This document shows positions 20,684 to 63,780 of a stretch of DNA of 64,000 nucleotides, piece after piece. The stretch is from assembly GCA_023139045.1 (NCBI GenBank), contig JAGLOJ010000044.1, forward strand, positions 23,274 through 87,273, in the 5' to 3' direction. How positions within the stretch are numbered: position 1 is the first letter of the stretch; every line of letters begins with the position of its first letter. Below the pieces are notes generated by a model. It saw nothing but the letters and a program-made list of their open reading frames with translations. It searched no databases and was not told the DNA's origin. The translations under genes and the position numbers were made by a program. Source of the DNA: Candidatus Sabulitectum sp. GTDB taxonomy: Bacteria > Fermentibacterota > Fermentibacteria > Fermentibacterales > JCC-6.

Positions 20684-20805
20684 CCTGTATTTCGGATTTA
20701 TCTATATTCTTAACATTTTGTTTGTGGCTCTGTTGTCTATCAGAGTAACAAGAAATAATTTGTGCTATTTTTAGCAATACTATGCATTTTTCTTTAAGAT
20801 TTCCG

Positions 20806-25486: not shown

Positions 25487-26152
25487 ATGAAATATCTTTT
25501 AATTGCAATGACGCTTCTTCTGGTGTCAGTCGCAACAGCGGATTGGCCCTGGCTCGAGAATTTTGATGCATACTCCGCTGGAACCGGCATCATTGGCCAG
25601 GGTAACTGGGAAGGCTGGGGTGGCAGTTCTGCCCCCGACGCTTACATATCTGATGCACAGGCACTGAGTGCCCCTCACTCCCTTGATGTTGAACCTACCT
25701 CTGATGTTGTTCAAGAATTTAACATCACCGAAGGACAGTGGGTTATCACAGCCTGGCACTACATTCCATCAGGCTCCACAGGCAAGCAGTTCTTCATTCT
25801 GCTTACTCTCTACGATGGTACTAATAGCAAATGGGCTCTTCAGCTCAAATTCGATTCAGATCTGGGTCAACTGAAGGTCACTGAGGGAACAGTTACCACC
25901 GCCATTATCTATGACCAGTGGACTGAAGTTAAAGTTGAAATCGACCTTGGTACAAGCATGCAGACCATCTCTTACAACGGCACCGAATTAGAAACCATCG
26001 CATGGGGAACCGGCACTTACATAGAGTTTGATGCTCTGGATCTGTTCAGTGACGGCGGAAGCTCGATCTACTGGGACGATATCAGCCTCGTAGAGATAGA
26101 AGAGGCCCTTGCACCCAGCACATGGGCAGCCATCAAGACTTCACTCAAGTAA
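25487..26152 (+). CDS. Secreted hypothetical protein, possibly a lectin/LamG-like beta-sandwich
   Basis: Signal peptide MKYLLIAMTLLLVSVATA, a beta-rich composition, and a terminator directly downstream. Confidence 0.5.
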   Translation: MKYLLIAMTLLLVSVATADWPWLENFDAYSAGTGIIGQGNWEGWGGSSAPDAYISDAQALSAPHSLDVEPTSDVVQEFNITEGQWVITAWHYIPSGSTGKQFFILLTLYDGTNSKWALQLKFDSDLGQLKVTEGTVTTAIIYDQWTEVKVEIDLGTSMQTISYNGTELETIAWGTGTYIEFDALDLFSDGGSSIYWDDISLVEIEEALAPSTWAAIKTSLK

Positions 26153-29912: not shown

Positions 29913-30038
29913 AATTCATTCCTCATGAAAAGGTTACAGATAAACATAGGAGCGAAAAGAAAGAAAACAAGGGGGGGTTGACACGATTGTACTACTTTGC
30001 TATTACAGTGGTACAATTTTGACAGAGGAGGAAATGTA

Positions 30039-30425
30039 ATGCTCAAAATTGATGCCGGCTCAGCAGTGCCTGTATACGAGCAGTTGAAAAGACAGATAAA
30101 ACTGAGGATAGTTTCCGGTAGGTATCCCTCCGATCACCGAATGCTCTCAATCAGGCAGCTTGCCTCGGAGCTTACGATTAATCCCAACACAATTGCCAAG
30201 GTTTACCGTCAGCTGGAGGGAGAGGGGTTTCTCATGTCAAAGACAGGTTCAGGATTCTTCGTAAAGCTCGAAAAGGAGCAAATGGGAACTACCAGAAGAA
30301 AACTGCTGGCTGAATTAACCGATGAATTCATCTCTCGGGTAGTTGAGCTTGGCTTCACGCCTGACGAACTAATAAACACTCTGTCTGAAAAGCTTGAGAG
30401 GAAATCTGCCGATGATCAAACTTAA
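30039..30425 (+). CDS. GntR-family (YtrA-like, short) transcriptional regulator
   Basis: The ribosome-binding site AGGAGG lies 8 nt upstream of the ATG. The wHTH is SIRQLASELTINPNTIAKVYRQLEGEGFL. A short C-terminus is typical of the YtrA subfamily that regulates adjacent ABC exporters. Confidence 0.8.
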   Translation: MLKIDAGSAVPVYEQLKRQIKLRIVSGRYPSDHRMLSIRQLASELTINPNTIAKVYRQLEGEGFLMSKTGSGFFVKLEKEQMGTTRRKLLAELTDEFISRVVELGFTPDELINTLSEKLERKSADDQT

Positions 30426-31212
30426 TAATTTAACCTGCGGCTATGGGAAGAATCCTGTTCAGTCAGATATATCCTTCGATATCAATGAAGGCGATGTTGT
30501 GATGATCACCGGACCCAACGGTGTGGGCAAATCAACCCTGCTCAAGGTTCTTGCAAACATTCTGTACCCGACCGCCGGAACAATAGACTACGGCTGGCCT
30601 GACACAAAAGACCCACGGCAACTCATTGGTTATCTGCCGGACAGTCTCAGCATCTACAAATCAATGAAAGTAAAAGATCTGGCAGAACTCCACTGGGGCG
30701 CATTCGGTGTAAAACCTGCACCTCTCCCCCTTCTCAAGGAAGCCTCCATTGACTGGAATTCAAGAATCAGCGAACTCTCAGTAGGGCAGAAAGCAATCTT
30801 CCACCTTTCACTGATACTCTCCACAAACCCGAAACTCATCCTTGTGGACGAAATACTGCACTCCGTTGACCCTCACCTTCGCAACCTGGCACTGGAAACA
30901 CTGGTAAAGACCATGGCAGACAGCAAACCAACTGTAGTCATGGTAAACCTGAATTACAACGAAGTTGAACACCTGGTTAACAGGGTAATCTTCCTGACGA
31001 AAACCGGCATCCTGCTGAATGAATCCACCGAGTACCTCCTGGAGAACGCCAGACTGGTTGTTGCCGACGAGGCCCCGGAAAATGCAAATGTACTCGCCAC
31101 CAGAAGTTATACAGGCAGAACCGAACACCTTGTTCTTCCAGGTGAAGGTGAGCAGATGAAACTCTCGGAAATTCTGACAATGCTCATGGGCAGCACCTAC
31201 CAGTCAGTGTAA
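30412..31212 (+). CDS. ABC transporter ATP-binding protein
   Basis: Walker A GPNGVGKSTLLKVL, signature LSVGQKAIFHLS, and Walker B LILVDE. Confidence 0.85.
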   Translation: MIKLNNLTCGYGKNPVQSDISFDINEGDVVMITGPNGVGKSTLLKVLANILYPTAGTIDYGWPDTKDPRQLIGYLPDSLSIYKSMKVKDLAELHWGAFGVKPAPLPLLKEASIDWNSRISELSVGQKAIFHLSLILSTNPKLILVDEILHSVDPHLRNLALETLVKTMADSKPTVVMVNLNYNEVEHLVNRVIFLTKTGILLNESTEYLLENARLVVADEAPENANVLATRSYTGRTEHLVLPGEGEQMKLSEILTMLMGSTYQSV

Positions 31213-31228
31213 GAAAGGAGTACCAGAC

Positions 31229-32029
31229 ATGTGGAAAAATGAAATCATGGACACCCTGAAGCAGACTGCGCTGGTGCTCAGTTTTTCTCTGCTGATCCCG
31301 ATAATTTATGGTATTAACAGCATGAGATTTCCAGAGGAAAATTTGTTCTTCACATGGTACATCGATTGGGGATTGACCTACCTGATCCCTATCCTGACAC
31401 TCTATCTGGCATACAACATGTTTGCCTCTGAAGATTCTGACGGGGCGTTGGAATACATGAAAAGTCTCCCTGTTAATAAATGGGAATTACTGGCCATCAA
31501 GATTCTTCCAAGGCTTGCTGTAACGCTTGTTCTTATGCTTATCTATACTTATCTTGTTATGGGTCATTATCTACCTCGTCAATTGGGAGTGTCCTGGCTG
31601 AGCACTTTGCTTCTACGCTTTTCCCTTCTCCCCAATGCCATCAGCATTGGTTTTCCCCTGATGGTTCTGATCTCAGGCTTCATGCTGGGAATCTCTAACA
31701 GAAAAAATCAATTTCTTGTTCTGGCCCTGGCAATACCAATACTGTACATGATTTACAGCCAGGGGTTCCTGGGCGTTCGATTCTCCCTTTACCACTTCTG
31801 GTGGAAGCTTTTCCAAACCGATCAATACAATCACATAATGCGACTTCTAAGTTCAGTTATCCAAATATACATTCCAGCAATGATACCTTTAGTTGTTCTG
31901 ATTCCTGTTTTCAAATCATGGGATTGCTCTTCAGGCAGAGCAAGAAGCGAGAGAATGCTGAAACGAATGGCCGGTCCACTGGGGTTGCTGATTGTTTTAT
32001 ACGCTGTCGGTCAACTCCATTTGCTTTAG
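31229..32029 (+). CDS. ABC-2-type permease, paralog 1 of 4
   Basis: Six-TM protein with the shared N-terminus M(W/L)K(N/K)EIMDTLKQTALV and the shared C-terminal motif SWDCSSGRxRSxRxLKRxAGP. Confidence 0.7.
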   Translation: MWKNEIMDTLKQTALVLSFSLLIPIIYGINSMRFPEENLFFTWYIDWGLTYLIPILTLYLAYNMFASEDSDGALEYMKSLPVNKWELLAIKILPRLAVTLVLMLIYTYLVMGHYLPRQLGVSWLSTLLLRFSLLPNAISIGFPLMVLISGFMLGISNRKNQFLVLALAIPILYMIYSQGFLGVRFSLYHFWWKLFQTDQYNHIMRLLSSVIQIYIPAMIPLVVLIPVFKSWDCSSGRARSERMLKRMAGPLGLLIVLYAVGQLHLL

Positions 32030-32041
32030 GAAGGTACAAAA

Positions 32042-32806
32042 ATGTTGAAAAAAGAAATCATGGATACTCTGAAGCAGACTACGCTGGTACTCAGCTTTCT
32101 CCTGCTGATCCCGATTGTGTTCTGGGTCAATAATATGATACTCCAGGACAATCCTCCGTTTTCGTTCTACCTCACCTCAGGAGTTATGCTGGGTATCACT
32201 CTTCTTGCATTTAGTCTGGCATACACAATGTTCAGCTCAAAAAGAGATGAATTTAAAAATTTGTTAAGTACAGCTTCCTCAAAATGGGAACTCCTTGCTG
32301 TAAAAACACTTCCAAGACTTACTGTGGTATGGATACTCATGTTAGCCTTCCTGATTATCGGTGCCATGCCTCCAGAGCAGATTGCAGGAAGCGCCTTTAT
32401 GCGCATTTTAGGCATCCGCCTGGGAGAATTTCTTGTGATATTCAGCGTGCCCCTGCTGATTATGCTGTCCGGTTTTTTCCTGGGTATGGCTGACAAAAAG
32501 AGCCCTCTTCTTATCGGTTGCTTCCTGCTGGCAATGACTTATCCTCTTCTTACCGGTCCAAAAATACTTATCAATGTGTTTGACAAGGTATTCATACCAT
32601 TGAGAATTACAGCAATCGCTACTCTTGATGTGGCAACGATAATAACTGTTTTGCTGCCTTCTGCTTTAGTCGTCTGTGTACTTATCCCCTTCTACAAATC
32701 ATGGAATGCTTCCTCGGAAAAAATAAAAAAAGAGAGAATGCTGAAACGAATGGCGGGGCCAGTGGGACTGATCATTCTTCTTTCCGCATACGCACTGGTG
32801 TCGTAA
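32042..32806 (+). CDS. ABC-2-type permease, paralog 2 of 4
   Basis: Same conserved N- and C-terminal motifs as paralog 1, with a diverged middle. Confidence 0.7.
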   Translation: MLKKEIMDTLKQTTLVLSFLLLIPIVFWVNNMILQDNPPFSFYLTSGVMLGITLLAFSLAYTMFSSKRDEFKNLLSTASSKWELLAVKTLPRLTVVWILMLAFLIIGAMPPEQIAGSAFMRILGIRLGEFLVIFSVPLLIMLSGFFLGMADKKSPLLIGCFLLAMTYPLLTGPKILINVFDKVFIPLRITAIATLDVATIITVLLPSALVVCVLIPFYKSWNASSEKIKKERMLKRMAGPVGLIILLSAYALVS

Positions 32807-32819
32807 GAAGGAGACTGGC

Positions 32820-33626
32820 ATGCTGAAAAAAGAAATAAAAGACACCCTGAAACAGACAGCTCTGGTTTTCAGTTTTATGCTGCTGATTCCAATTATTTTT
32901 GGTATCAATAATTTGAGATTTCCAGAAGAAGATCTTTCCTTTCTATGGTACATAGAGTGGGGTGTGAGTTACCTTATTTCTTTCCTGACTCTCTATCTGG
33001 CGTACAATATGTTTGCGTCAGAAGACTCTGATGGGGCATTGGATTACATAAGAAGTCTCCCTGTAAACAAATGGAAACTACTTGCTATCAAGATTCTTCC
33101 AAGGCTCGCTGTTACTCTGCTTCTTGTTTTTGCTTACAGATATCAGATTGAATACCGCTATACTCTTGGAGTGGCGGGAATTTCACAGAGTGGTATGCTT
33201 CTTTATCACTTCTCCTTTCTGCCCAACACAGGAATTTTCCTCATGATAATGATCGCAGGTTTCCTACTGGGAATATCAAACAGGAAGAATCCCTTTCTTG
33301 TTGTTGCCCTCGCAATGCCAGTGCTGTACATGATTCTCGGCAAGGCATCTCTTCCAGGACCAATGTATAGAAGTATTTATTATTGGTGGTATGGTCACTT
33401 TGGTTACATGTCCCACAATGTCTATCGTTCAATGATGTTCCTCTTTACTACTTTCCTTCAGGTCTACCTTCCATCAATACTATCATTCACAGTACTAATT
33501 CCAGTCTTCAATTCGTGGGATTGCTCTTCCGGAAGAATCAGAAGTCAGAGGATTCTAAAGCGAATAGCCGGTCCTCTGGGAATGATCATTGCTTTGTACA
33601 CAATCAGTAATTTCCGTTTTCTGTAG
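32820..33626 (+). CDS. ABC-2-type permease, paralog 3 of 4
   Basis: Same conserved N- and C-terminal motifs. It is closest to paralog 1. Confidence 0.7.
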   Translation: MLKKEIKDTLKQTALVFSFMLLIPIIFGINNLRFPEEDLSFLWYIEWGVSYLISFLTLYLAYNMFASEDSDGALDYIRSLPVNKWKLLAIKILPRLAVTLLLVFAYRYQIEYRYTLGVAGISQSGMLLYHFSFLPNTGIFLMIMIAGFLLGISNRKNPFLVVALAMPVLYMILGKASLPGPMYRSIYYWWYGHFGYMSHNVYRSMMFLFTTFLQVYLPSILSFTVLIPVFNSWDCSSGRIRSQRILKRIAGPLGMIIALYTISNFRFL

Positions 33627-33638
33627 AAAGGAGCTGGA

Positions 33639-34388
33639 ATGCTGAAAAAAGAAATCATGGATACTCTGAAGCAGACAGGAGCAATTTTAAGTTTCATGCT
33701 GCTGATTCCAGTAATACACCAGGTTAATGAGATCAGGCTGGGTGGTACTTCGTCTCTAGGTAACTATTTCATAAAAGGTGCATCACTGAATTTTATGTTA
33801 CTTATTGTCGGACTTGCATATATGATGTTCTCATCTGAAGATAATGATGATGCAATGGAGTATTTGAAATCTCTGCCTGTCTCAAAGTGGGAACTGCTCA
33901 ATATAAAGATACTTCCAAGGCTTGCAGTTCTATCTGTTCCCATACTGGGTTTTACTATTTTCTCTGCTCTAACGGCTCCTTCCGACATAACCGATTACTT
34001 CTTTCTGTTGGTAGCGCCAGTTGCACTTACAGTAATAATTGCTCTGATCTCCGGATTCTTCCTGGGAATATCAGACAGGAAGAATCCGATTCTTATAGGA
34101 GCAATGACCCTTCTTTCTTCATATCCAATATTCCTCGGATCCATTATTGTGCATAGAATTTCTCGATACATCGTTCACCAGACCCAAGCAGAAATCCCTC
34201 TCTACTTATACGCTCTTGTGCACTTTGTAACTGTAACGATCCCTGTATTGATCCCGTTGTGTCTTCTCATCCCAGTTTACAGATCATGGGATTGCAGATC
34301 CGGAAAAGTTAGAAGCCAGGCTATCCTGAAACGACTGGCAGTTCCTTCAATCCTGATTGTAATACTCTGGGGAGTACTTTCACCCTGA
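33639..34388 (+). CDS. ABC-2-type permease, paralog 4 of 4
   Basis: Same conserved N- and C-terminal motifs (MLKKEIMDTLKQT... and ...SWDCRSGKVRSQAILKRLAVP). Confidence 0.7.
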   Translation: MLKKEIMDTLKQTGAILSFMLLIPVIHQVNEIRLGGTSSLGNYFIKGASLNFMLLIVGLAYMMFSSEDNDDAMEYLKSLPVSKWELLNIKILPRLAVLSVPILGFTIFSALTAPSDITDYFFLLVAPVALTVIIALISGFFLGISDRKNPILIGAMTLLSSYPIFLGSIIVHRISRYIVHQTQAEIPLYLYALVHFVTVTIPVLIPLCLLIPVYRSWDCRSGKVRSQAILKRLAVPSILIVILWGVLSP

Positions 34389-34430
34389 TAAATCTTAAAG
34401 GCAGACTTAATCGACAACAAGGAGAAGTTA

Positions 34431-35567
34431 ATGAAAATGAAGCAGGAATTGATTCTTTTTACAGTTACGGCAGCAATCTTTTCGGGATGCGGAGAAAGCC
34501 CGCCGGAAGAAGTATCTGTAATAGAAACAGTGGAAGAAGTACCGGTTATACCCGATTCTGTGGCACAGTGGATTGAGTGGGCGGAAGAAAGCGGAGACGG
34601 GCTCTGGGAAGATGGCAGCCACAGGTTCATTCTGAAAGAATCCCTTGTTTACGGCGGACAGGAAATACCGCCTTTCTTCAATGTTGAAGGATTCGACTTC
34701 AAGGGTGATACACTGTTTGTAAGCGATCCTGCGGACCAATCTCTTGCTGCTGCCTCACTTACAACCGGAGAGCAGATCTGGAAAGTGGGGGAACAGGGAG
34801 GGGGGCCCGGGCATTTCAACGGTATCTGCGAAATTGCAGCAGGATCTTCCCGAATCGCTGTATGCGACATGGGCAACAACAGAGTTTCACTATTGAACTT
34901 TTCCGGTGAGTTTCTTACCGAAATTTCTATCCAGTGCCCGTTCGATGTCATGTGGAAAGGTGATACTTTATTTGTTCTCAGTCTTGCCGAAAGCAAACCT
35001 CTGAACATGTACAATGCAGATGGTGAGTTTCTTGACTCGTGCGGTGAATTGCCGGAAGAATTGGATATGCTTGCTTATTCAAACAGGCACCTCCACGGGG
35101 TAGTGGCTCCGAACGGTCATGTACTGGTTATTTCACGATTCCTTGCCGGAATATGGAAAATTGATCCTGCCACTGGTTCAACTGAATTGTTTTCTGAAAT
35201 TTCATTCCCCCAGGGTGAAATGGTAAATGATATTGCCAGTGGGTCATTTATGGTTCTCTCCAGAGACATCTTCATCGGCCCTGACGGAATGGTAAATGTG
35301 ATACTGCCTGTTTTCTCTGAAAATGGCGGGCCATTGTCTGACGGTAGTGAAATGCTTAAAACAACCGCAGTTCACAGGTACAACTGGGATGGTGAGTATC
35401 TGGACAGCTGGGTAATCGATGGTACTGTGGGTGTTGTGCTGATGCACAACGGGCAACTCTTCTCCGCAGACAGATATGCTGACGGTGTTGTAATTGATCA
35501 CGGTGTAATTCCGCTGAATCGGAGTGCAGAGCATGATATGAACGATGTGAGGTCGCAGTCCACATAA
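34431..35567 (+). CDS. NHL-repeat / six-bladed beta-propeller lipoprotein
   Basis: Lipobox FSGC. NHL-like repeats are present (GDTLFVSDPADQS...GGGPGHFNGICEIAA...IAVCDMGNNRV). It is a paralog of the genes at 57145 and 62689. Confidence 0.65.
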   Translation: MKMKQELILFTVTAAIFSGCGESPPEEVSVIETVEEVPVIPDSVAQWIEWAEESGDGLWEDGSHRFILKESLVYGGQEIPPFFNVEGFDFKGDTLFVSDPADQSLAAASLTTGEQIWKVGEQGGGPGHFNGICEIAAGSSRIAVCDMGNNRVSLLNFSGEFLTEISIQCPFDVMWKGDTLFVLSLAESKPLNMYNADGEFLDSCGELPEELDMLAYSNRHLHGVVAPNGHVLVISRFLAGIWKIDPATGSTELFSEISFPQGEMVNDIASGSFMVLSRDIFIGPDGMVNVILPVFSENGGPLSDGSEMLKTTAVHRYNWDGEYLDSWVIDGTVGVVLMHNGQLFSADRYADGVVIDHGVIPLNRSAEHDMNDVRSQST

Positions 35568-53669: not shown

Positions 53670-53884
53670 TTGCCGAACCAGAGTTGATTTCCCAACCTGT
53701 CTTGCGCCGCGAATCACAAGTGGCTTTCTGGATGATGCTTCCAGCCAGCGGAATAGATTTTTCTCAGCAAAGCGTTTCATTCATCACCTCCTGAACTTGA
53801 TATTGGCCATATCATACCCCTCTTTTCACCACTTGATGTACATATCATACCCTTATTATACACACTATGCAATATCGCAGTTTC
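53670..53884. repeat. Direct repeat copy 2. It contains a 5' remnant of about 37 codons of a COG1373 ATPase gene (53670..53780, minus strand) plus the duplicated upstream region.
   Basis: It aligns with 51700..51912. The remnant reads MKRFAEKNLFRWLEASSRKPLVIRGARQVGKSTLVRQ and then loses homology. Confidence 0.85.
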
Positions 53885-54133
53885 GAATCGGGATCAATTC
53901 AAGCCTTGCTGGATACCGATCTTTCTTCACGCAAATCAGAAACAGGCAGAAACAAGACCACAACATTAATTTCGCTATATTTCAGGTATGCCGGTTTATT
54001 TATTTGTAGTTCTTCTTTCCCCTATACCAGAATACGAGTTTTACATATTTTGCCTATCAAGCTCCATTCAGATTCAAGTAGAAGCCGTTTGCAGAGTAGA
54101 TCTGAATTGAAAAACAGCAGTACCACTTCCAAC

Positions 54134-55825
54134 ATGAGGAAACTCTGGCAAGACCGCAGGCTGCTTTTTCGCACCCTGACATTCCTCAAGCCATGGCTCA
54201 AATGGCATGCTCTTGGGCTTTTCCTCACAATTCTGGCTGCTGGTCTTGCTCTGGTTCAACCCTGGGTGACCAGGCTTCTTATTGATAAGGTTCTAATAGA
54301 TGGCAATACAGACCTGCTTCTTAAAATCTGCTTTGCCTATTTAGGAGCTGTACTTCTTGGTTCCCTCGTAGGTATGGCAATGTCGATTCTGTTCTCCTGG
54401 GTTGGCCAGAGCGCAGCAATAGACTTGAAGATGGCCCTGTACAAAAAGTTGAATACCCTGTCCATGGCCTTTACCGGCAGGAAAAGGGTGGGAGAACTGA
54501 TGGCGGGGTTTACCAGTGATATCCCCGTTATGCAGAGTTTGTACTCTTCAACCCTTTCAAGTACAATCAGTGAGGTAATCAGGTTCTTCGTAGTACTGGC
54601 AGTAATGATTTCTATTAACCCGCGACTTACCCTCCTGGCTGTACCATCCATTCCCCTGTTCGCCATAATTATTGCATTGGCAGGAACCATGCTGAAAAAG
54701 GCCAGTGCTGAAGTTCAAGAGAAAAGAGCTTTCTTCACTGCTACGCTTCAGGAACAGCTTTCAGGTCTCCGCACATCTGCTGCCTTCAATCTTGAGAACC
54801 GGGAAAGCGTTAAGTTCAAGAACTCCATGACAGATCTTATGCACTCAAGTATTCGCCTTACAGTTAAAGGCTTTGTAATGAATGCCGGTTCCCTGCTGGC
54901 ATCAACTACTCTCATTCTTGTGATATGGCTGGGTGGAAAAGAAGTAATTCAGGGCAGGATGGACGTTGGTGTACTGATTGCTTTCATCAGCTATTTCGGT
55001 ATGCTGTTTGGCCCTGTAGGCTCCATTGCCGGAATCGCCACACAGATTCTGAAAGCTATGGGTGCCGCAGAGAGGGTATTCACAGTCATAGATACAGAAC
55101 CCGCCGTGACAGAGCTTCCCGGTGCAGCAGAACTCACTGGTGTTAAGGGTAAGGTTGAATTCAAAAACATCAGTTTTTCCTACTCGGAAGAGTCTCCAGT
55201 TCTGAAGAATTTCAACGAGGTTATCCATGCAGGTGAAACAGTAGCCCTGTCCGGTGACAGCGGATCAGGCAAAACCACTCTGATATCTCTGTTGCTCCGT
55301 TTCTTCGATCCGGATAGCGGTGAAATTCTGATTGATGGAAACTCAACAAAAAACTTCACCCTTGAATCCCTCAGGAGAAACATCGGCGTGGTTTTTCAAG
55401 ATCCGTTCCTTTATCACTGTTCCGTGGCACAAAACATTCTTCTTGGCAGTCCTGAAGCATCAATGGACGAAATTGAAAAAGCGGCAAGGGCAGCCCATGC
55501 CCATGAGTTCATCACAACCTTGCCTGATGGTTACGATACTCTTGTCGGGGAACGGGGCAGCAGTTTATCCGGTGGGCAGGTTCAGAGGCTTGCCCTTGCC
55601 AGAGTATTCCTGAAGGATCCACCCATCGTTGTACTTGATGAAGCCACCAGCGCGCTTGACAGTAAAAGCGAGTCCAAAATACAGGATGCTGTTTCTCATC
55701 TTTTACAGAGCAGAACATGCCTTGTTATTGCTCACAGGCAATCTACTGTGGAGTCTGCTGACAGGGTAGTATCAGTTCCGCTTTTATCGGGCAATAACGA
55801 CATTACTCCCCTTGCTGCCAAATGA
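54134..55825 (+). CDS. ABC exporter, a fused transmembrane domain and ATPase (MsbA-like). The start is chosen at MRKLWQ.
   Basis: Six-TM ABC transmembrane domain, Walker A LSGDSGSGKTTLISLL, signature LSGGQVQRLALAR, and Walker B IVVLDEATSALD. Confidence 0.85.
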   Translation: MRKLWQDRRLLFRTLTFLKPWLKWHALGLFLTILAAGLALVQPWVTRLLIDKVLIDGNTDLLLKICFAYLGAVLLGSLVGMAMSILFSWVGQSAAIDLKMALYKKLNTLSMAFTGRKRVGELMAGFTSDIPVMQSLYSSTLSSTISEVIRFFVVLAVMISINPRLTLLAVPSIPLFAIIIALAGTMLKKASAEVQEKRAFFTATLQEQLSGLRTSAAFNLENRESVKFKNSMTDLMHSSIRLTVKGFVMNAGSLLASTTLILVIWLGGKEVIQGRMDVGVLIAFISYFGMLFGPVGSIAGIATQILKAMGAAERVFTVIDTEPAVTELPGAAELTGVKGKVEFKNISFSYSEESPVLKNFNEVIHAGETVALSGDSGSGKTTLISLLLRFFDPDSGEILIDGNSTKNFTLESLRRNIGVVFQDPFLYHCSVAQNILLGSPEASMDEIEKAARAAHAHEFITTLPDGYDTLVGERGSSLSGGQVQRLALARVFLKDPPIVVLDEATSALDSKSESKIQDAVSHLLQSRTCLVIAHRQSTVESADRVVSVPLLSGNNDITPLAAK

Positions 55826-55976
55826 GACTGTCGCTGGACAGATTATGATGCGTGAAGTGGAGCCCTTTTCAGACAGGAGCTATCTATTGCGGAAAAATAG
55901 AGGTATTGACACTCGAAAGTGGGGGGGGGTATATACGGTGGTGCTATTCACTAATTAACTTTTGGAAAGGTGAGAT

Positions 55977-57152
55977 TTGCCAGAGATGAAAATTGATTAT
56001 TATCTGCTTGCCGTAAGTACCTTACTGCTTTCCTGCAGTAAAGGGTATGAAGAGATGGATCCGGTCGCCTATCAGATAATTGAAAATCCTTCGGAAGTCA
56101 CTGTTGAACAGATAGCTGATATTCCATACATGTTTGCACATGATGGTTTGTTAATTCCTGGCAGCATTGATTCCTCTGATGATGTTATAGTTCTGGGGTT
56201 CTGTGGTGATTCTACGACTGCCGGTATATCAGCTTATGACTGGGAAGGAAAACTGCTCTGGTCAACAGAATATGGTACATATGGATATGCCTCAGCCGTA
56301 TGTGTTGATGGAAACAGGGTACTCTTTTCTGTTACTGATGAGATTCCGGTTCTTGATTCTGCCACAGGTGAAATGATTGAAACAATCAGCGCAGAAGGGC
56401 TCAGTGATATTCTTGTACTACCCGAGGCACCCGATGGACAGTCTATGCCAGACTTTAGACTCGCTCAGGGGATGGAAATACAAAGCGAGATTATGCTCTG
56501 GAATAAGCCGGAGTGTGATTTAAATTTCTCATATTGTGGATTCTTATCTGATTTGCACTGTTCCTTCCAAAGGTATCTCAGGGTTACACGAATCGATGGA
56601 TTATGGTATATCGGCATGACAGAGGGACATTACGAGCGCCTCAGTATTTATAAGGTACCGGATTTCCAGCATTCATTGCGACCAAAGGTATTCGATATTG
56701 CTCTGACAGACACATCGGTCGTCGCTATTCTTTCGTTTAGAGACATGGTGATGGAGTTTGCTTTTGATGGCAGGCTTATCAGAACGACATATTTTGGTCA
56801 TGAGCTTGAAGGTCCTATAAGTTTCACATACGACAGTTTTATGGGTAGTACAATTTTCAGGTATTTAATCGCTGATATTGATACCGATGACGAAGGCTGT
56901 ATTTACCTGCTTTACTCCGGTTACGGGGTTGGTCAAAACGGTAACGCCGAGATTTGGAAGGTGAATACTGTTTCCCTTACTGCTTCTATGGCCAGGCTGG
57001 ACCATTCCGCAGTGGCTTTCACGATTTGCGGCAGCAGAGCGGCCGTTGTGGAGCAGCAGCATGAGCCTGGCGAGGGTGATGAAATAGTATTAACCGGAAC
57101 CCCTTCGATTCATGTTTATCAGATAGAATGGGAGGACAGTACAAGTGTCTGA
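55977..57152 (+). CDS. Beta-propeller-like lipoprotein, a distant paralog of the NHL lipoproteins
   Basis: Lipobox LLSC. Composition is beta-rich. Its end overlaps the next lipoprotein gene. Confidence 0.55.
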   Translation: MPEMKIDYYLLAVSTLLLSCSKGYEEMDPVAYQIIENPSEVTVEQIADIPYMFAHDGLLIPGSIDSSDDVIVLGFCGDSTTAGISAYDWEGKLLWSTEYGTYGYASAVCVDGNRVLFSVTDEIPVLDSATGEMIETISAEGLSDILVLPEAPDGQSMPDFRLAQGMEIQSEIMLWNKPECDLNFSYCGFLSDLHCSFQRYLRVTRIDGLWYIGMTEGHYERLSIYKVPDFQHSLRPKVFDIALTDTSVVAILSFRDMVMEFAFDGRLIRTTYFGHELEGPISFTYDSFMGSTIFRYLIADIDTDDEGCIYLLYSGYGVGQNGNAEIWKVNTVSLTASMARLDHSAVAFTICGSRAAVVEQQHEPGEGDEIVLTGTPSIHVYQIEWEDSTSV

Positions 57153-58257
57153 TTCTTCTATTTTCTTCCTGCTGTGCATTATTCTTTGTACTGCCGGGCT
57201 ATCTTGCCAGTCAAATGTTGACAGCGATGTTTCCGTTTGCGAAGAACTGATCGAGTGGAGAGAATGGCTCGAAGCGTCCAGTCCTCCTGAAGTAGAAACT
57301 GACATGCCGTTTTACATTCCTTCCGATACGATACTGTCACCGGAGACGTGTGAGTATGAGTATTTCATGATAGAGAGTTTTGTGATTGATGACAACAGGA
57401 TATTTCTCAGCGATGGAAAATCCAGCACTCTTCTAGCTTTTAGCTTTGATGGGGAACTTCTCTGGAAAACCGGTGGCAAGGGAGAGGGTCCCGGTCTCTT
57501 CAGTGGTATAGGGAATATAGCCTGCAAGGGTGATACTCTCGCAGTATGTAATCATGCTGTAGGTCGCGTAGATTATTTCGACTGTAACACTGGTGAGTGG
57601 ATATCATCCATATCAATACTATGGCCGTATGACCTTTGTTTTCTTCCGAATGGTAATCTGGTTGTTGTAAGTCTAATGCAGAATGATCTTGTTACAGTAT
57701 TTACGCCATCAGGGGAAAAAGTTTTTAGCTCAGGTTCATGGAATGCACCAGGAGAGGAAGCCTTCCATTTTTTGTTCTCAGCAGGCAACAGGAATATGCG
57801 TTCAACTCTCGTATGTGACAGCGTACTGGCGGTCAATTCCTATTTTTATAACTGGTGTCAATTATACAATACCAACTCTGGAGAATTGATCAATGCGTTC
57901 AAACGTGAACTGCCTTTTCCCGAAATGGAGTTTGAAGAAATAAACGGGGTGTTTGTCGGGAAAATCTATGCAATTGATATTGCGTCGTTCGGGAGTATGA
58001 TTGCGATTTTACATAGGCCTCCAGAGGATAGTTGGGATATTTCATCAAGGTATGATGAAATTCCTTTTTATGAAATCGATTTTGCAATGGTTGATATCTG
58101 GGATACTGAAGGAGAGTACATAGGCAGTTTTGCCTTCCCTCGTGGGGTAGGACGTATCCTCTGGCACGATGGAATAATGTACGGTGCAACTGATGGGTCA
58201 GGAGAGCTGATTCGATATACTGAGATCACTTTCGATTCAGAAAGAAATCTGGAGTAA
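57145..58257 (+). CDS. NHL-repeat / six-bladed beta-propeller lipoprotein
   Basis: Lipobox GLSC. The motif block DNRIFLSDGKSSTLLAFSFDGELLWKTGGKGEGPGLFSGIGNIACKGDTLAVCNHAVGRV is parallel to those in the 34431 and 62689 proteins. Confidence 0.65.
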   Translation: MSDSSIFFLLCIILCTAGLSCQSNVDSDVSVCEELIEWREWLEASSPPEVETDMPFYIPSDTILSPETCEYEYFMIESFVIDDNRIFLSDGKSSTLLAFSFDGELLWKTGGKGEGPGLFSGIGNIACKGDTLAVCNHAVGRVDYFDCNTGEWISSISILWPYDLCFLPNGNLVVVSLMQNDLVTVFTPSGEKVFSSGSWNAPGEEAFHFLFSAGNRNMRSTLVCDSVLAVNSYFYNWCQLYNTNSGELINAFKRELPFPEMEFEEINGVFVGKIYAIDIASFGSMIAILHRPPEDSWDISSRYDEIPFYEIDFAMVDIWDTEGEYIGSFAFPRGVGRILWHDGIMYGATDGSGELIRYTEITFDSERNLE

Positions 58258-59007
58258 ATTCTGAAGTTTCCTGGGTTCTCAACCTTGGGAACGGTGTTCT
58301 GGCCCATGGTACAAGTTTTCCTCCAGCAGCAAATGTATGTCCGAAGCAGCCACCAAGACAGTACCTAAACAAATCACACTGTGAATCTCGGTAAATCGTC
58401 TGTCTGTTGCTGTCAGCATACCTTACATCGTGTAAGACCGAAAAATTTTCCCACGACCTGACACAGAGAAGGAACAGAGGGTCCAGTCGCTTTCGCAGAT
58501 CATCTATAGTCTGCTGTAAATCGCACATTCATCACTTCTTTTGTGTCTGATTTCATAATTACGGATCTGCCGTGTTTTTTCTCTTGATTCTTTCCCAATC
58601 ACGAGTTTCTTCCACCCAGGCAGCTCACCAAACAATTTGCTGCACACAACTTCTCCCCGGGAATCATTCATAATTACTGCTTTATCAATCTCTCTTTTAA
58701 CCCCATCGTAGTAGAGCAGATAAACTGGTTCTATCTCCAGCATCGCCGGGAACTTCACCTGAACCGGTGTCAACGGTTGGTTAAATTTTCCGATATCATA
58801 AAACCCTGTATATCCTGTGCCATGAATTGTACATATTGCAGTTTCGATTTAGAGCCTCAATTCCTCTCTTTGTTGAAATCAATCATTCTTCCCTGAATTC
58901 GGAAACAGCAGAATCAAGACAACAGCATCAATTTCGTTATACTTTAAAGGATGTCGATTTATTTATAAATCCTCTTTCTCAATATCAGAATGTGAGGTTT
59001 ACATCTT

Positions 59008-60102
59008 TTGCCAGTCAAAACCCGTTCAGAAGCGCTATTATTAACAGTAATTATCTCAATGCTCTGTATGCTGGCATGCGATTCAGCGACCGAAATGAGT
59101 GTTGTGGAACAAAGGCATCTTGTAGTTGTTGATTCAATTGGATCACTGTATGGGAATGATTATGAAATGTTCGGAAATATAAATGGTGCTTATTTTGTTG
59201 ATGATTCTACATTCGTTGTCCTGGACAAGGGGTACAATGAGTTGCGTGTTTTTGATAGAGAATGCAATTTCATAAAGACTGTTAATTGTCAAGGAAATGG
59301 TCCTTGGGAGTGTCAGGATGCAGCATATTTGTCTTCACTTGACAATACTATAGCTGTATTTGAATTTCTCATGCCACCAAGAGCTGTATTTTTTGATAGT
59401 GCAGTTAATCCCAAACGCTCAGTTGTTCTATCTGGATACACTGCTTTAATGGAACCATCGTTAGTGGATTCATTAACAATCATTGGGAGTGTCGGAAGTT
59501 TTTCAGAACAAAATGGGAATCAATTCGCCGGTATTGATGTGTGCTCTTGGAGCACAATAACAGGTGAAAAGTTATGTGAATATTTCTCAAATTCGATTCA
59601 AATAGATTCTAGAGAAGGTTTATACAGTAGACTGGTCAGCTTAGAACTCACTATTGCTGCATCAAGTAGCGGTTATGTATACGTAGCCCCAAGTAAGAAT
59701 GATTACAAGATTCTTATATACTCATCAGAAGGAATGTTGATAGATTCAATTTATCAAACTCACGAACGCGCAATGCGAAGTCAGGAGGAGATACTAGCAG
59801 AGTGGGAGTGGCGAAAATTGAGAGATATTCATTTGGGAGATTGGATACCATCTGAATACGAACTTGAGGTTACGCAACTTCAAGTTCAAGATTCATTAAA
59901 GTACTTGTGGGTCAGTCATGGATCATATTTCAATCCATCATTTGATGTATTTAACCTACTTGGTGATTTAGAATTTACATGTACTGTTGAAGGATTGCCA
60001 GAAAATGAGATTATTCGATTTGGAATAAATGACAATGGCATATTGGCGTACACTGATTACTGTGCTACTTATCCAAGATTGTATATCCTGGAATTTCGAT
60101 AG
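59008..60102 (+). CDS. Beta-propeller-like lipoprotein paralog. The gene is visibly AT-richer than the rest of the window.
   Basis: Lipobox MLAC. The motif YFVDDSTFVVLDKGYNELRVFDRECNFIKTV follows the NHL-like blade pattern. Confidence 0.55.
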   Translation: MPVKTRSEALLLTVIISMLCMLACDSATEMSVVEQRHLVVVDSIGSLYGNDYEMFGNINGAYFVDDSTFVVLDKGYNELRVFDRECNFIKTVNCQGNGPWECQDAAYLSSLDNTIAVFEFLMPPRAVFFDSAVNPKRSVVLSGYTALMEPSLVDSLTIIGSVGSFSEQNGNQFAGIDVCSWSTITGEKLCEYFSNSIQIDSREGLYSRLVSLELTIAASSSGYVYVAPSKNDYKILIYSSEGMLIDSIYQTHERAMRSQEEILAEWEWRKLRDIHLGDWIPSEYELEVTQLQVQDSLKYLWVSHGSYFNPSFDVFNLLGDLEFTCTVEGLPENEIIRFGINDNGILAYTDYCATYPRLYILEFR

Positions 60103-60189
60103 CGTAATCCTGCCTTGCCAAAGTAAATCTAGAGTTTCGCTTGACTGTGGGCTCAGGAATCAGACATTCACGGGTGTACCGTCCTGACC

Positions 60190-60292
60190 TCTCTCATCTT
60201 TGCAGAACATGCCTTGTTATTGCTCACAGGCAATCTACTGTGGAGTCTGCGGACAGAGTAGTATCAGTTCCACTGTTATCGACTATCGGCGC
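60190..60292 (+). repeat. Duplicated 3' fragment of the ABC exporter gene. It is a copy of 55697..55795.
   Basis: The fragment is tctcatcttt...cagaacatgccttgttattgctcacaggcaatctactgtggagtctgc.gacag.gtagtatcagttcc. It encodes RTCLVIAHRQSTVESADRVVSV and has only a few mismatches against the source. Confidence 0.8.
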
Positions 60293-60357
60293 AGTCACAG
60301 GTCTGAGTTGAACCGCCATCAATGACCTCCGAAGTAGTTCACTGATCAATTCTTGAT

Positions 60358-61104
60358 TCATTGATCAGATCGATTGAGTTTCATAAGAGAAGCTGTAATC
60401 AGAAAAGCACTCCAAAGAAATGGATAGATATTTTGTGCAATCCCGCTAAAGTTGGGTAGCTCTCCTATGATTTCAATTCCGGAAGACGGGGGGGGAAGGT
60501 GTCCTGCTGCGACATTACTGTATCCAATTCCAACAGGAAACAATGCGTTGCATACTGTTTTTGCTATTGCAGGATTCGAACCCAGAGAACTCCTGAAGAA
60601 GACAATTAGCGTAATAATAGGAAAAACAATATTGAAAGCCGGGAAAAACTTGTTATGAAAAAATGAGTTGCCAGCAATTGAAAATGCTGCCAATGCGATG
60701 GTTACCTGAATGATTCCAAATGCGGCTAAAAATAAATCAGCGGGAAAGTAGCCAGAGTACAATGGAAAGATCAAGCATGGTACGAAAAAAAGAATCACCG
60801 CCACAACAAGCCCCACTTGGGTAAGTTTGACAAACAGATCAAAATAGTATTTTTGCCTGCTCACTGGTGCAGTCACCCACATACGAATTCTTCCGCTTTG
60901 CAGTTCTTCGCCAATGCTCTTGTAAGTTGTTACCGAAAAGTAAAAAGAAAGGGCAAATATTACTGCAAACAACTGCCCGCCAATACCCAGATAGCAGCCT
61001 TCACTGCCTGCGCGCAAATCCATACCAACAGCAAGGAACATCAAAAGTGAATACCAGATTAGAGTCCCCAGCACGGAACTCCGGGTGTTTCTACGCCCCA
61101 GCAT
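60358..61104 (-). CDS. ABC-2-type permease, locus 2, second permease
   Basis: Six-TM protein. The motif RMWVTAPVSRQKYYF is shared with its neighbour. Confidence 0.6.
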   Translation of the reverse strand: MLGRRNTRSSVLGTLIWYSLLMFLAVGMDLRAGSEGCYLGIGGQLFAVIFALSFYFSVTTYKSIGEELQSGRIRMWVTAPVSRQKYYFDLFVKLTQVGLVVAVILFFVPCLIFPLYSGYFPADLFLAAFGIIQVTIALAAFSIAGNSFFHNKFFPAFNIVFPIITLIVFFRSSLGSNPAIAKTVCNALFPVGIGYSNVAAGHLPPPSSGIEIIGELPNFSGIAQNIYPFLWSAFLITASLMKLNRSDQ

Positions 61105-61808
61105 CAGTACCCTCTCTTATTTACCGCAACGAGAAGCACGCCAAAAACTCCCAGAGACCATAATGTGATATATAAAAAGTCTGACATCGTAATCACCGAT
61201 GGACTGATCAGCGGGAATACGCCATTGTACACAGATCGAATCCCGATTGCAATGGGCATTATGCTGTAAAGGACTCTCTTATGCTGCTGCATAATACCAG
61301 GGTCCAGCTGCATTACCAATAATATCCATGGGATAAATATCATTAAGGGAAGAGATAGATTCCCTCTGACTGATATGGAAACAAGAAATACAAACAAAAC
61401 CAGTACCACTGTTGTTGAGGCAACACCTCCTACTATCAAAAAGTAATTGACGGGGAGCATTCGATACTTCAGAAAGAAAAGCAAGACAACGATAGCAGCC
61501 CAGATAGTACTGCTCAGAACTACCCTTAGCAGTATCTTTTTGATGCTGGAGATGAACAGTTGTGCTTTAGATACTGGAGCAGTAACCCACAACCTCATAC
61601 GATTTGTGCTGATTTCCTCGTTGAACATAGAACTCACAAGAGAAGCGGTATAAGAAACAAAAGCCAGCATTACTATTTCCTGCAAAAATGCAAGAGATGA
61701 CGGATGCCTGCTGGATAAAACCTTAAATAACAATGCAGCGGAATACAGAAGAAAAAAGAACATTACAATCACCCTGTGCTTTTTATCGAGACTTCTGCTG
61801 AGCATCAT
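61104..61808 (-). CDS. ABC-2-type permease, locus 2, first permease
   Basis: Six-TM protein with the motif RLWVTAPVSKAQLF. It overlaps the ATPase gene stop. Confidence 0.6.
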   Translation of the reverse strand: MMLSRSLDKKHRVIVMFFFLLYSAALLFKVLSSRHPSSLAFLQEIVMLAFVSYTASLVSSMFNEEISTNRMRLWVTAPVSKAQLFISSIKKILLRVVLSSTIWAAIVVLLFFLKYRMLPVNYFLIVGGVASTTVVLVLFVFLVSISVRGNLSLPLMIFIPWILLVMQLDPGIMQQHKRVLYSIMPIAIGIRSVYNGVFPLISPSVITMSDFLYITLWSLGVFGVLLVAVNKRGY

Positions 61809-62647
61809 TGACCAACCGTTGCAAAGTAGAAGTCTTCCATGGTTACCGAAGAGACAGTGCTGTAATCAATTGGAAAGCTGTTCAGTGTCTGTTTTTCAAT
61901 AATGACAAAAGAATCGAAACTGAAACTAACCTTAGACTCTGGTATGTTCAATTCCTGCTGTATTTTTCTGGATAGTTTCCGGTAGTTTGAGAGAGATTCA
62001 AACTCTCCGGTGGCTATATTTCGTCCATCATGAATTATAAGGAAATTGCCCTGGTGCATTTCTACTTCATGCACCCTGTGCGTACTCTGCAGCACGGTAG
62101 TACCGGACTCGCAGAGCGTCTTTATCCGCTTCCGAACCTTTCTGATATTTATAGGATCCAAACCCTCCAATGGCTCATCCAGTATCAGGAATTCTGGTTT
62201 ACCGGAAAGCATCAGGGAAAGGAGCATCAACTGTTTCTCTCCTTTTGATTTCCCCTTATAGTACTGGTTGAGAAGATCCTCGCAGCCAAAATAATCGAAC
62301 ATGTCAGCTACATCAGAAAAGTTAATATCTTCTCTGTACCGCCCATACTCCTCAGTCATATCGGCAGTATTGCAATATACCGGCAGAATCACAGACTCAG
62401 GAAGATACCTTACAAACTTACGGGATTCAGGTTTCCGGCAGTCCACACCATTAATTAGAATAGTTCCACTGTCAGCAGAAATCAGATTCATTGCGATATT
62501 CATCAGGGTGGATTTACCCGCTCCATTACTCCCGAGAAGAATAGTGTTTTCACCTTTTCTTATATCACAGGAAAAGCCCTCGCGAAGACCTCTTGTTCTT
62601 CCGTAATACTTTTTCAGGTTTTCAGTTCTCAAGGCAAATCCACTCAT
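61805..62647 (-). CDS. ABC transporter ATP-binding protein, locus 2
   Basis: Walker A LGSNGAGKSTLMNI, signature SKGEKQLMLLSLML, and Walker B FLILDEPLEGLD. Confidence 0.85.
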   Translation of the reverse strand: MSGFALRTENLKKYYGRTRGLREGFSCDIRKGENTILLGSNGAGKSTLMNIAMNLISADSGTILINGVDCRKPESRKFVRYLPESVILPVYCNTADMTEEYGRYREDINFSDVADMFDYFGCEDLLNQYYKGKSKGEKQLMLLSLMLSGKPEFLILDEPLEGLDPINIRKVRKRIKTLCESGTTVLQSTHRVHEVEMHQGNFLIIHDGRNIATGEFESLSNYRKLSRKIQQELNIPESKVSFSFDSFVIIEKQTLNSFPIDYSTVSSVTMEDFYFATVGQ

Positions 62648-62688
62648 AAATAAATCTCCAAGCTGTAAGCTGTCTCTAAGCTCCTTCT

Positions 62689-63780
62689 CTACACAAACGC
62701 TGGAATAATTTCATAAATCCTGATGAACCCTTCTAAGCAATCAATGGCATAAATGTAATCACCGTTGATTTCGATTGTACCGCAGCATGTTTCCGGGGCA
62801 AGAACCGTATCGCAATATCGCCCATCCAGTGTGTATCGGTCAATCAAACCGATACTGGCGATGCGAGGCATGTCGCCCCGGCAAGTACTCAGAGTTTTAT
62901 CAATGGTAACTACAGGTAAGAGAACATAAAGCAGACTATCCGAAGAACTGCAGATATCGTTGCAGTGTATATACAGTATCCCTCCTTCGTTAGCAGGAGG
63001 AGTCAGGGGAGTATTACGGAAAAAACTTGTTTCAATCTGCTCATTCTTTAAATCATAAATCGTTATAACGCTTTCGTAAAATGATCCCACTGCAATTCGG
63101 GAATCCGGTAATGGAGTCACATATAAATTTCGGTTAGAGTAAACCACATTCTGCTCAAGAGTTGTTTCCCACTCACCAAATGCATCAATTTTCTCAAGGG
63201 TAACAGTATGATACAGATTAATCAGTTTTCCCTCTGCAAGACTCAGTACCACCAATACGGTATCATTTACCACAGTCAGGTCGTATGGAGTAGCAATGCT
63301 GATATCGCCCTGATAATCTCCGTGCTTATCAAGCACCGTAATACGTGAGTTTTGTTGATTATTCACAAATACTCTGGAGTTTGAAACTGCAATATGGGTT
63401 ATTCCTGAAAAATGCCCCGGTCCTTCCCCAGGTTCTCCAAATTTCCAGATGAGTTCATTTGTAGCAGCATTCAAACAGACAACACTCTCTGTAGAAGAAT
63501 CAGTCACGAAAAGAGTGTCACCGGAAATTGCAATATCCACCGGGCTGTAAAACAATGCAAATGCATCTCCACCAAGTGTTGAAACTTCCCTGAGAACAAC
63601 CTGTCTCTCAGGACTGTTTACCCACAACCCCTCGTCACTTGCCTGAGCCCACTCCTTCCATACAGCTAATGTGTACTCAGCAAGTGAGGTGTTTCCGCCC
63701 TGCGCTCCGGCAAATTCAGCATCTGATGTACAGGACAAAATAGCAAATAAACAGGATAACAAATAAATAGGAAACTTCAT
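62689..63780 (-). CDS. NHL-repeat / six-bladed beta-propeller lipoprotein, the locus 2 partner
   Basis: Lipobox ILSC. The motif block GDTLFVTDSSTESVVCLNAATNELIWKFGEPGEGPGHFSGITHIAV is nearly collinear with the 34431 protein. Confidence 0.65.
   Translation of the reverse strand: MKFPIYLLSCLFAILSCTSDAEFAGAQGGNTSLAEYTLAVWKEWAQASDEGLWVNSPERQVVLREVSTLGGDAFALFYSPVDIAISGDTLFVTDSSTESVVCLNAATNELIWKFGEPGEGPGHFSGITHIAVSNSRVFVNNQQNSRITVLDKHGDYQGDISIATPYDLTVVNDTVLVVLSLAEGKLINLYHTVTLEKIDAFGEWETTLEQNVVYSNRNLYVTPLPDSRIAVGSFYESVITIYDLKNEQIETSFFRNTPLTPPANEGGILYIHCNDICSSSDSLLYVLLPVVTIDKTLSTCRGDMPRIASIGLIDRYTLDGRYCDTVLAPETCCGTIEINGDYIYAIDCLEGFIRIYEIIPAFV

Follow-up and report, generated by a model that had tools for sequence, protein, structure and literature searches.

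A propeller-lipoprotein and ABC-2-type transporter module in Candidatus Sabulitectum, a candidate orphan of radical-SAM peptide clusters

A lipoprotein encoded with an ATP-binding cassette (ABC) ATPase and two ABC-2 permeases has precedent as a peptide immunity system (PMC4828448, PMC5786555). A second described assembly, that of quinohemoprotein amine dehydrogenase (QHNDH), comprises the small Cys-rich leader peptide QhpC, the radical S-adenosylmethionine (radical-SAM)/SPASM cross-linking enzyme QhpD, the beta-propeller QhpB, and the efflux ABC transporter QhpF (PMC7876137, PMC8172795). We compared these and other systems with a four-gene module at 63780-60358 of a 64,000-nucleotide stretch of Candidatus Sabulitectum sp. 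(assembly GCA_023139045.1, contig JAGLOJ010000044.1, positions 23,274 to 87,273), which we call the window and to which coordinates refer unless a related locus is named. The module, or locus 2, encodes an NHL-propeller lipoprotein, an ATPase, and two small permeases. By analogy, it may be an orphaned self-protection or export unit for a cross-linked peptide, similar in design to the lipoprotein LanI with the pump LanFEG; this is the reading we favor, with a confidence somewhat short of even.

The likeness to LanI and LanFEG, of which subtilin spaIFEG and nisin NisI/NisFEG are examples, begins with composition: a single lipoprotein is combined with a single ATPase of ABC-2 class and with a pair of dissimilar small permeases of six transmembrane (TM) helices. 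The subtilin genes spaIFEG stand in the same order as those of the module. That order, lipoprotein, ABC ATPase, permease, permease on the minus strand, is as the original prediction gave it, and all four open reading frames (ORFs) are present. First comes the lipoprotein, of 363 amino acids (aa) and type B5 of its family (62689..63780), followed by a 280-aa ABC-2-type ATPase whose C-terminal extension ends in the motif MEDFYFA (61805..62647; PF00005, E 2e-21). The permeases P2a (234 aa, 61104..61808) and P2b (248 aa, 60358..61104) have six predicted TM helices each. P2a was recognized by hydropathy, AlphaFold2 topology, and a weak ABC2_membrane_3 match, and P2b, its paralogue, by BLASTP and a weak ABC2_membrane_2 match. 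The two are 25% identical over 177 aa (BLASTP, E 3e-10), share the motif RxWVTAPVS, as had been predicted (NRMRLWVTAPVSK and GRIRMWVTAPVSR), and probably form a heterodimeric membrane domain. A 41-nucleotide (nt) gap separates lipoprotein and ATPase genes, while ATPase and P2a overlap by 4 nt and P2a and P2b by 1 nt; this tight spacing fits a single four-gene operon, as judged from the sequence. Scans for sigma-70 promoters and terminators gave counts no higher than in shuffled controls.

The product of 62689 has a predicted signal peptide that ends at Cys17 of the lipobox AILSC (MKFPIYLLSCLFAILSC, followed by TSD), which marks it as a putative bacterial lipoprotein, and in an alignment of 31 of the lipoproteins conservation of the lipobox Cys is 90% or higher. 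Its six four-stranded blades can be superposed on NHL domains, giving a six-bladed NHL beta-propeller. The transporter is best classed as ABC-2 type (type V). Its ATPase is a separate polypeptide with intact catalytic motifs (Walker A GSNGAGKS, signature SKGEK, Walker B FLILDE, and the H-loop His), the closest database relatives carry ABC-2 type ATP-binding annotation, and the closest solved relatives are TM0544, ABCA3, Rv1218c, NosF, and LptB. The permeases fall short of formal family membership, scoring 17.6 bits against a Pfam gathering score of 31.6 for ABC2_membrane_3 (PF12698) and 16.8 against 27.2 for ABC2_membrane_2 (PF12679); neither matches any NCBIfam model at E 0.01, and the permease family profile gave no meaningful match to PDB sequences. 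The motif EE..S.R.K.W...PVSR, which follows the second helix and is kept in the family-wide permease alignment, speaks for the ABC-2 class, as its position and style are those of the usual ABC-2 motif; in P2a it is conserved as EE..NR.RLW..PVS (alignment A3). The ten top Foldseek matches in the PDB of a low-confidence permease structure model, built from a shallow 4-sequence alignment, are all type-V TM domains (PmtCD, NosY, and ABCA7/ABCA4), and the first of them, a weak match, is the peptide exporter PmtCD.

Conservation of the arrangement is apparent beyond the window, as the adjacency of lipoprotein and transporter that the original prediction relied on recurs in related loci, separately for each of the two locus types discussed here. 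The order of locus 2, lipoprotein, ATPase, and permease or permeases, is found in the window (L005 in our numbering of fetched loci), L017, L001 (the same as L036), L006 (the same as L021), L037, and L038. The ATPase subfamily is narrow, consisting of six clusters (P0159-P0164) that are 44-95% identical, after which scores drop from 238 to 131 bits. Across these six lineages a type-B lipoprotein stands upstream wherever the upstream gene is readable (5/6), and every fetched locus has one or two P2-type permeases downstream. Orthologues of P2b occur in L017, L001, and L038, and L006 and L037 have single-permease versions; in L039, with the same ATPase as L038, the ATPase and permease genes are preceded on the contig by no more than a cut gene of 35 codons. 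No lipoprotein gene adjoins P0165 (35% identity), the ATPase that comes next in similarity. The flanks of the module differ by lineage; in L001, for instance, they include a pst operon and a two-component system, and an Mbh/Mrp-like operon accompanies the module in both the window and L017.

The conserved adjacency upholds one part of the neighborhood argument, but what the original prediction missed is the primary tie of the lipoprotein family, which is to radical-SAM/SPASM peptide-maturation clusters. The commonest neighbor of a B lipoprotein in the fetched loci is a radical-SAM/SPASM enzyme immediately upstream, as in L002, L003, L007, L018, L020, L024, L026-L028, and L031. In such loci a type-A lipoprotein sometimes lies between the two, and an ABC_membrane-type exporter follows B; the full order in L002 is precursor, radical-SAM, A, B, exporter. 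Ahead of the maturase gene, L002 (153-311), L024 (2344-2526), and, in tandem, L026 (1842-1985 and 2047-2187) have small Cys-rich ORFs with a hydrophobic leader and a Cys-rich core, and the cores of these precursor-like ORFs follow the pattern C..DC...C...G.G[HN] (for example, ...GCVYDCGPAECTEGAGCSVGAGHFMP). The maturase scores best to the peptide-modifying SPASM enzymes StsB, MftC, ScmE, WgkB, and PqqE, below every curated cut-off. By its gene content, then, this is a cluster of one or two Cys-rich precursors, a radical-SAM/SPASM maturase, one or more propeller lipoproteins, and an ABC exporter, with the B family as a fixed component. A literature search found no paper on this combination of precursor, maturase, propeller, and exporter. 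The propeller had also been considered as the maturase's own substrate, an idea dropped after the conserved small precursors turned up upstream of the maturase.

The module is joined to such ribosomal-peptide maturation clusters in L037, L021, and L020, which is a second point of likeness to LanI and LanFEG. In L037, the genes for maturase, B, ATPase, and permease run in the same direction, spaced 1-31 nt apart. The last 97 maturase residues are retained directly before B in L021/L006 (41% identity to the L037 maturase, E 1e-21), and in L017 a SPASM remnant persists immediately ahead of B. L020 has maturase and B followed by an internally deleted module, in which the start of the ATPase is joined to the C-terminal half of the last permease. 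Read from gene order in several lineages, the ancestral place of the module is directly behind a peptide maturase. In L021, a YoeB/YefM-like toxin-antitoxin pair (1233-1744, minus strand) is inserted in place of the main part of the maturase gene.

As a third likeness, the module also occurs as an orphan without biosynthetic genes, and the window provides an example. Upstream of the module in L017 is the maturase remnant just described; it is lost from the window, with no radical-SAM homologue left upstream of the module. What adjoins the module here is an island, at 53.8-60.3 kb, of parts from such clusters. An ABC_membrane plus ABC_tran half-transporter of 652 aa (53867..55825, plus strand; Pfam) has as its top NCBIfam matches MsbA-related and bacteriocin/HlyB-type exporters, all under cut-off, and it is of the type that closes radical-SAM clusters, homologues ending L002, L007, and L031. 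Next is a type-A lipoprotein (391 aa, lipobox LLSC; 55977..57152, plus strand), which overlaps by 8 nt the start of a type-B3 propeller lipoprotein (370 aa; 57145..58257, plus strand) that is 27-28% identical to the other two B copies (E 1e-21 to 1e-24). Orthologues of the type-A protein (40-75% identity) always lie directly before a B3 gene, A-B pairs being kept in L015/L034, L016, and L035, and type-A relatives follow the radical-SAM gene in L002, L003, L007, and L024. A type-C lipoprotein (364 aa, lipobox MLAC; 59008..60102, plus strand) has a weak DUF5128 match; its relatives precede the precursor and radical-SAM genes in L026-L028 and the module itself in L021.

Two relics complete the island. 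At 58295..58453 (minus strand, inside ORF 58226-58528) is a decayed radical-SAM/SPASM maturase of which only the SPASM Cys-motif region is left; its 53 aa, including the motif CDLFRYCLGGC, match the L024 maturase (residues 379-431) at 66% identity (E 2e-22). The L002 maturase as query revealed no radical-SAM sequence in the window, and the relic surfaced only with the closer L024 query. Neither an 89-aa ORF at 58504-58773, considered as the N-terminal part of the decayed maturase (best E 0.2), nor a plus-strand CX3CX2C-like match of 14 residues at 58798-58839 (E 0.36, too weak) could be added to it. The second relic is the 3' end of an ABC_membrane-type exporter gene (60192..60308, plus strand; tblastn), a pseudogene fragment that matches the 53867 exporter (residues 610-650) at 76% identity across 41 aa (E 1e-10); in L017 this place beside the module is taken by a complete exporter gene. 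With transporters and four lipoproteins intact and the biosynthetic genes gone, the stretch at 53.8-63.8 kb reads as the wreck of at least one such cluster.

The two DNAs are 89% identical across the module, and the ratios of nonsynonymous to synonymous substitution (dN/dS) between window and L017 are 0.19, 0.09, 0.27, and 0.24 for its four genes, which points to purifying selection on all four despite the lost maturase. We infer that the window carries an orphaned cluster tail, in which maturase and precursor have decayed while lipoprotein and pump have been kept by selection. About 4.4 kb of the window (55786-60204; 11528-11602 in L017), holding the A, B3, and C genes, is absent from L017. 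This stretch is bracketed by duplicated pieces of the exporter gene, one from its 5' region (58857-59028) and one from its 3' end (60192-60308), and it looks like a recombination hot spot.

The lipoprotein itself belongs to a family marked by the helix W..WAESS..GLWE at the N terminus and the motif DRY...G.YLDS at the C terminus. Searching 1.84 billion representatives with a profile yielded about 40 full-length members, besides thousands of irrelevant NHL-repeat matches to blades 1-2. All taxon-named, genome-derived loci come from Aegiribacteria or Sabulitectum metagenome-assembled genomes, and four are labelled only "uncultured bacterium"; as sampled, the module appears restricted to Fermentibacterota. 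Families A, B, and C match no NCBIfam model. The nearest described proteins are the DUF5128/TolB-like six-bladed propeller lipoproteins of Bacteroidota, which share the fold class with weak sequence similarity. The 62689 protein, however, is below the DUF5128 (PF17170) gathering score (20.1 versus 22.9 bits), and the B family has N- and C-terminal motifs of its own; the paralogue 57145 passes (24.0 versus 22.9 bits). Nothing relevant was found in the literature on propeller lipoproteins in radical-SAM clusters or on DUF5128. In a neighbor-joining tree the module-linked B5, locus-1-linked B1, and A-paired B3 proteins each form their own clade, and B5 and B1 are not sisters. One protein of the representative library, P0026 (733 aa), carries a type-B domain at its N terminus and a type-A domain at its C terminus in a single polypeptide, which suggests from sequence that type A and type B lipoproteins act together.

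On the self-protection or export reading, the propeller would be anchored on the outer side of the cytoplasmic membrane and would bind the cross-linked peptide, and the ABC-2 pump would use ATP to clear the peptide from membrane or periplasm. The outcome would be self-protection or resistance to peptides made by relatives; alternatively, the same pump may serve as the peptide exporter in genomes with an intact cluster. Self-protection is favored because binder and pump have been kept after biosynthesis was lost, and because a lipoprotein, an ATPase, and two permeases stand in spaIFEG order, with locus 1 having a Pmt/Ytr-like layout. The associated maturase, unlike that of the Lan systems, is a radical-SAM/SPASM enzyme and not a lanthipeptide synthetase, and the host of the module is a diderm of the FCB group, Fermentibacterota. 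By every sequence criterion the module stands outside the LanI/LanFEG family; that it works like them is an analogy that we hold tentatively.

Several points weigh against it. The lipoprotein is a 360-aa NHL propeller and not a LanI fold, and we know of no precedent for a propeller of this size as a bacteriocin immunity protein. The ATPase fails the lantibiotic-protection family TIGR03740 (98.3 versus 309.75 bits), and the permeases have no MutE/EpiE or MutG match in NCBIfam at E 0.01. The permease structure model has a pLDDT (predicted local distance difference test score) of 61, with fold matches at E 0.05-0.6 and TM-scores of 0.5-0.58. The window contains neither a precursor, as judged by the Cys/Gly density of ORFs and by tblastn with four precursors, nor an intact maturase, only the 53-aa SPASM relic, and any substrate must therefore come from the rest of the genome or from other cells. 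The neighbor-joining tree is distance-based and crude, and the loci sampled are few, with about 33 distinct B proteins in the tree set, many from short metagenome contigs.

A different use of the same parts is suggested by the QHNDH operon, qhpABCDEFG. The cross-linked Cys-rich peptide could be, rather than a toxin, a subunit or cofactor that after export docks into one or more propeller lipoproteins and so completes a functional extracytoplasmic complex, with the ABC-2 pump as its dedicated exporter. The parts correspond, since a Cys-rich leader peptide, a radical-SAM/SPASM cross-linker, a beta-propeller, and a dedicated efflux ABC transporter are encoded together in both. The L002 gene order and the fusion of A and B in P0026 are in keeping with such a docking partner, as are precursor cores with Cys beside Asp or Glu, like Cys-Asp/Glu thioether substrates, and in L037 the ABC-2 pump stands in the exporter's place. 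However, the clusters seen contain no dihaem alpha subunit, no Trp-bearing gamma subunit, no QhpG, and no subtilisin-like QhpE, and their propellers are six-bladed NHL lipoproteins. The precursors contain no Trp from which a quinone cofactor could be made, the clusters lack genes for a haem or redox partner, and the invariant propeller residues include no His or Cys site for a metal or cofactor. The immunity and cofactor explanations share the binding step and differ on the use of the module without peptide genes, and it is here that the window bears on the choice: its locus uses an ABC-2 pump and has lost its maturase, and purifying selection on a module whose maturase has decayed is hard to explain for a cofactor unless another cluster supplies the peptide. 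We consider the cofactor explanation unlikely.

The original prediction took a broader view, in which the module is the second copy of one found at 29997..35567 (plus strand; locus 1) and the two loci together are strong neighborhood evidence for a conserved, lipoprotein-dependent ABC-2 export system; the lipoprotein would be an obligatory accessory and the cargo, in the form of this idea that we weighed, something other than a peptide. Locus 1 consists of a short GntR-type regulator (PF00392), an ATPase, four tandem ABC-2 permeases, and a type-B1 lipoprotein at 34431. Its order, GntR, ATPase, two to four permeases, lipoprotein, recurs whole or in the part visible on the contig in L008-L012, L014, and L022, so that both pairings of a B lipoprotein with an ATPase and small ABC-2-like permeases are conserved. 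The ATPase gene begins within the last 32 nt of the GntR gene. The four permeases (29997-34388 stretch) are tandem paralogues, 36-59% identical, with two to four in relatives, and the ATPase appears to be without the H-loop histidine (VMVNLNYNE).

Comparison of the two loci separates the lipoproteins from the pumps. The block-for-block alignment claimed for the lipoproteins is confirmed, as 62689 and 34431 are true paralogues (32% identity over 326 aa, E 1.7e-45), and the motifs GDTLFV.D and GE.G.GPGHF are found in both. The ATPases, by contrast, are only 28% identical and score 60 bits to each other, versus about 100 bits between the locus-2 ATPase and hundreds of generic ABC-2 ATPases of other phyla; each of the two scores higher to generic ABC-2 ATPases than to the other. 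A shared Q-loop YLPE/YLPD in place of YLPQ was considered as a mark uniting the two, but YLPE/YVPE is common in generic ABC-2 ATPases. No significant BLASTP match links the permeases of the two loci (best E 0.02), and in a profile-profile comparison (hhalign) the aligned region is confined to 50 columns at the ABC-2 motif (probability 70%, E 4e-5); the locus-1 permease passes ABC2_membrane_2 (35.6 versus 27.2 bits). Thus, the claim that one lipoprotein family is combined with one transporter class holds for the lipoproteins and fails for the transporters, which are of different ABC-2 subfamilies. Of the two circumstances said to weaken the link, an unrelated ABC-2 subfamily is what is found, whereas adjacency to the lipoprotein is conserved elsewhere. 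With related lipoproteins but different ABC-2 subfamilies, the loci are, by sequence comparison, not two copies of one system.

These results bear directly on a general export system. Accessory extracytoplasmic proteins are known for ABC-2 pumps, as NosD and NosL are for NosFY, and among solved structures NosF and NosY are some of the closest to the module's transporter. Like NosDFYL, the module encodes an ABC-2 pump with an extracytoplasmic protein, but it has no NosD, NosL, or NosZ. The PQQ/Ped system (TIGR03864/TIGR03866) likewise encodes an ABC-2 pump with a YVTN beta-propeller protein; the locus-2 ATPase scores 92.6 versus 302.25 bits for TIGR03864, the propeller does not match TIGR03866 and reaches only a YVTN repeat model (18.9 versus 27.85 bits), and no PQQ or alcohol dehydrogenase context surrounds the module. 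Locus 1 resembles PmtR-PmtABCD and YtrA-type operons, with a short GntR regulator followed by an ABC-2-class ATPase and permease genes. Pmt, the phenol-soluble-modulin exporter, has a double role, secreting the peptide that a cell makes and shielding that cell from it. The scores lie far under the cut-offs, however, at 53 versus 200 bits for PmtR, the second-best NCBIfam match of the regulator, and 65-73 versus 350 for PmtA (73 for the locus-1 ATPase), and Pmt has no lipoprotein while locus 2 has no regulator. Besides the distant ATPases and the permeases that share the ABC-2 motif only, the two loci differ in gene order, regulator, and permease number, their lipoprotein clades are not sisters, and the lipoprotein family is, as sampled, confined to one phylum and tied to radical-SAM clusters. 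One general export system behind both loci is, in our judgment, decidedly unlikely.

That the transporter acts on the lipoprotein itself, in sorting, release, or surface exposure, or that the adjacency is a meaningless product of scattered paralogues, is highly improbable: five related lipoproteins lie within 64 kb, three of them adjoining ABC genes, and the island at 53.8-60.3 kb is visibly rearranged, but the ATPase subfamily accompanies the B5 clade across six lineages in varied settings wherever the upstream gene is readable, the congruence of clade and context in the tree speaks against chance, and the known lipoprotein-sorting pumps (LolCDE) are MacB-type, not ABC-2.

Elsewhere in the window, two AAA_14/DUF4143 ATPase genes adjoin the island (50427-51809 and 52224-53576, both minus strand); the fetched stretch of L017 has one such gene only, 95% identical in DNA to 50427-51809. 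A PLD-family nuclease gene near RloB-like and AAA_21 ATPase genes on the opposite strand (20162-22733) looks like a small defense island. A C25 (gingipain-like) peptidase (44153-46198, minus strand) has a type IX secretion C-terminal sorting domain, which implies a type IX secretion system in this Fermentibacterota genome. At 14242-17165 (minus strand) a response regulator with a PglZ domain, an unusual two-component output domain, lies beside a histidine kinase. For two long ORFs, 7734-9530 (minus strand, 598 aa) and 25487-26152 (plus strand, 221 aa), Pfam gives no match at E 1e-5.

Taken jointly, these loci might belong to an undescribed Fermentibacterota system, in which a radical-SAM-cross-linked, Cys-rich peptide is served by membrane-anchored A, B, and C propeller lipoproteins, either as receptor or immunity proteins of a new kind or as apoproteins for a cofactor derived from the peptide; we regard this as doubtful. 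Part of the same doubtful proposal is that ABC-2 pumps would have been recruited to the propellers independently at least twice. For annotation, loci 1 and 2 should not be treated as duplicates, and it is the maturase or its relic upstream that predicts function, not the transporter class. If these readings are right, the module would be the first propeller-based orphan immunity unit to outlive its biosynthetic cluster, and there would be a new class of radical-SAM peptides with precursors of its own. About 40 sequence clusters of "hypothetical" lipoproteins would gain a role in a phylum without a cultured model. A diderm lineage would then have arrived, with unrelated parts, at the surface binder and ABC-2 pump design by which Gram-positive lantibiotic producers protect themselves from their peptides.

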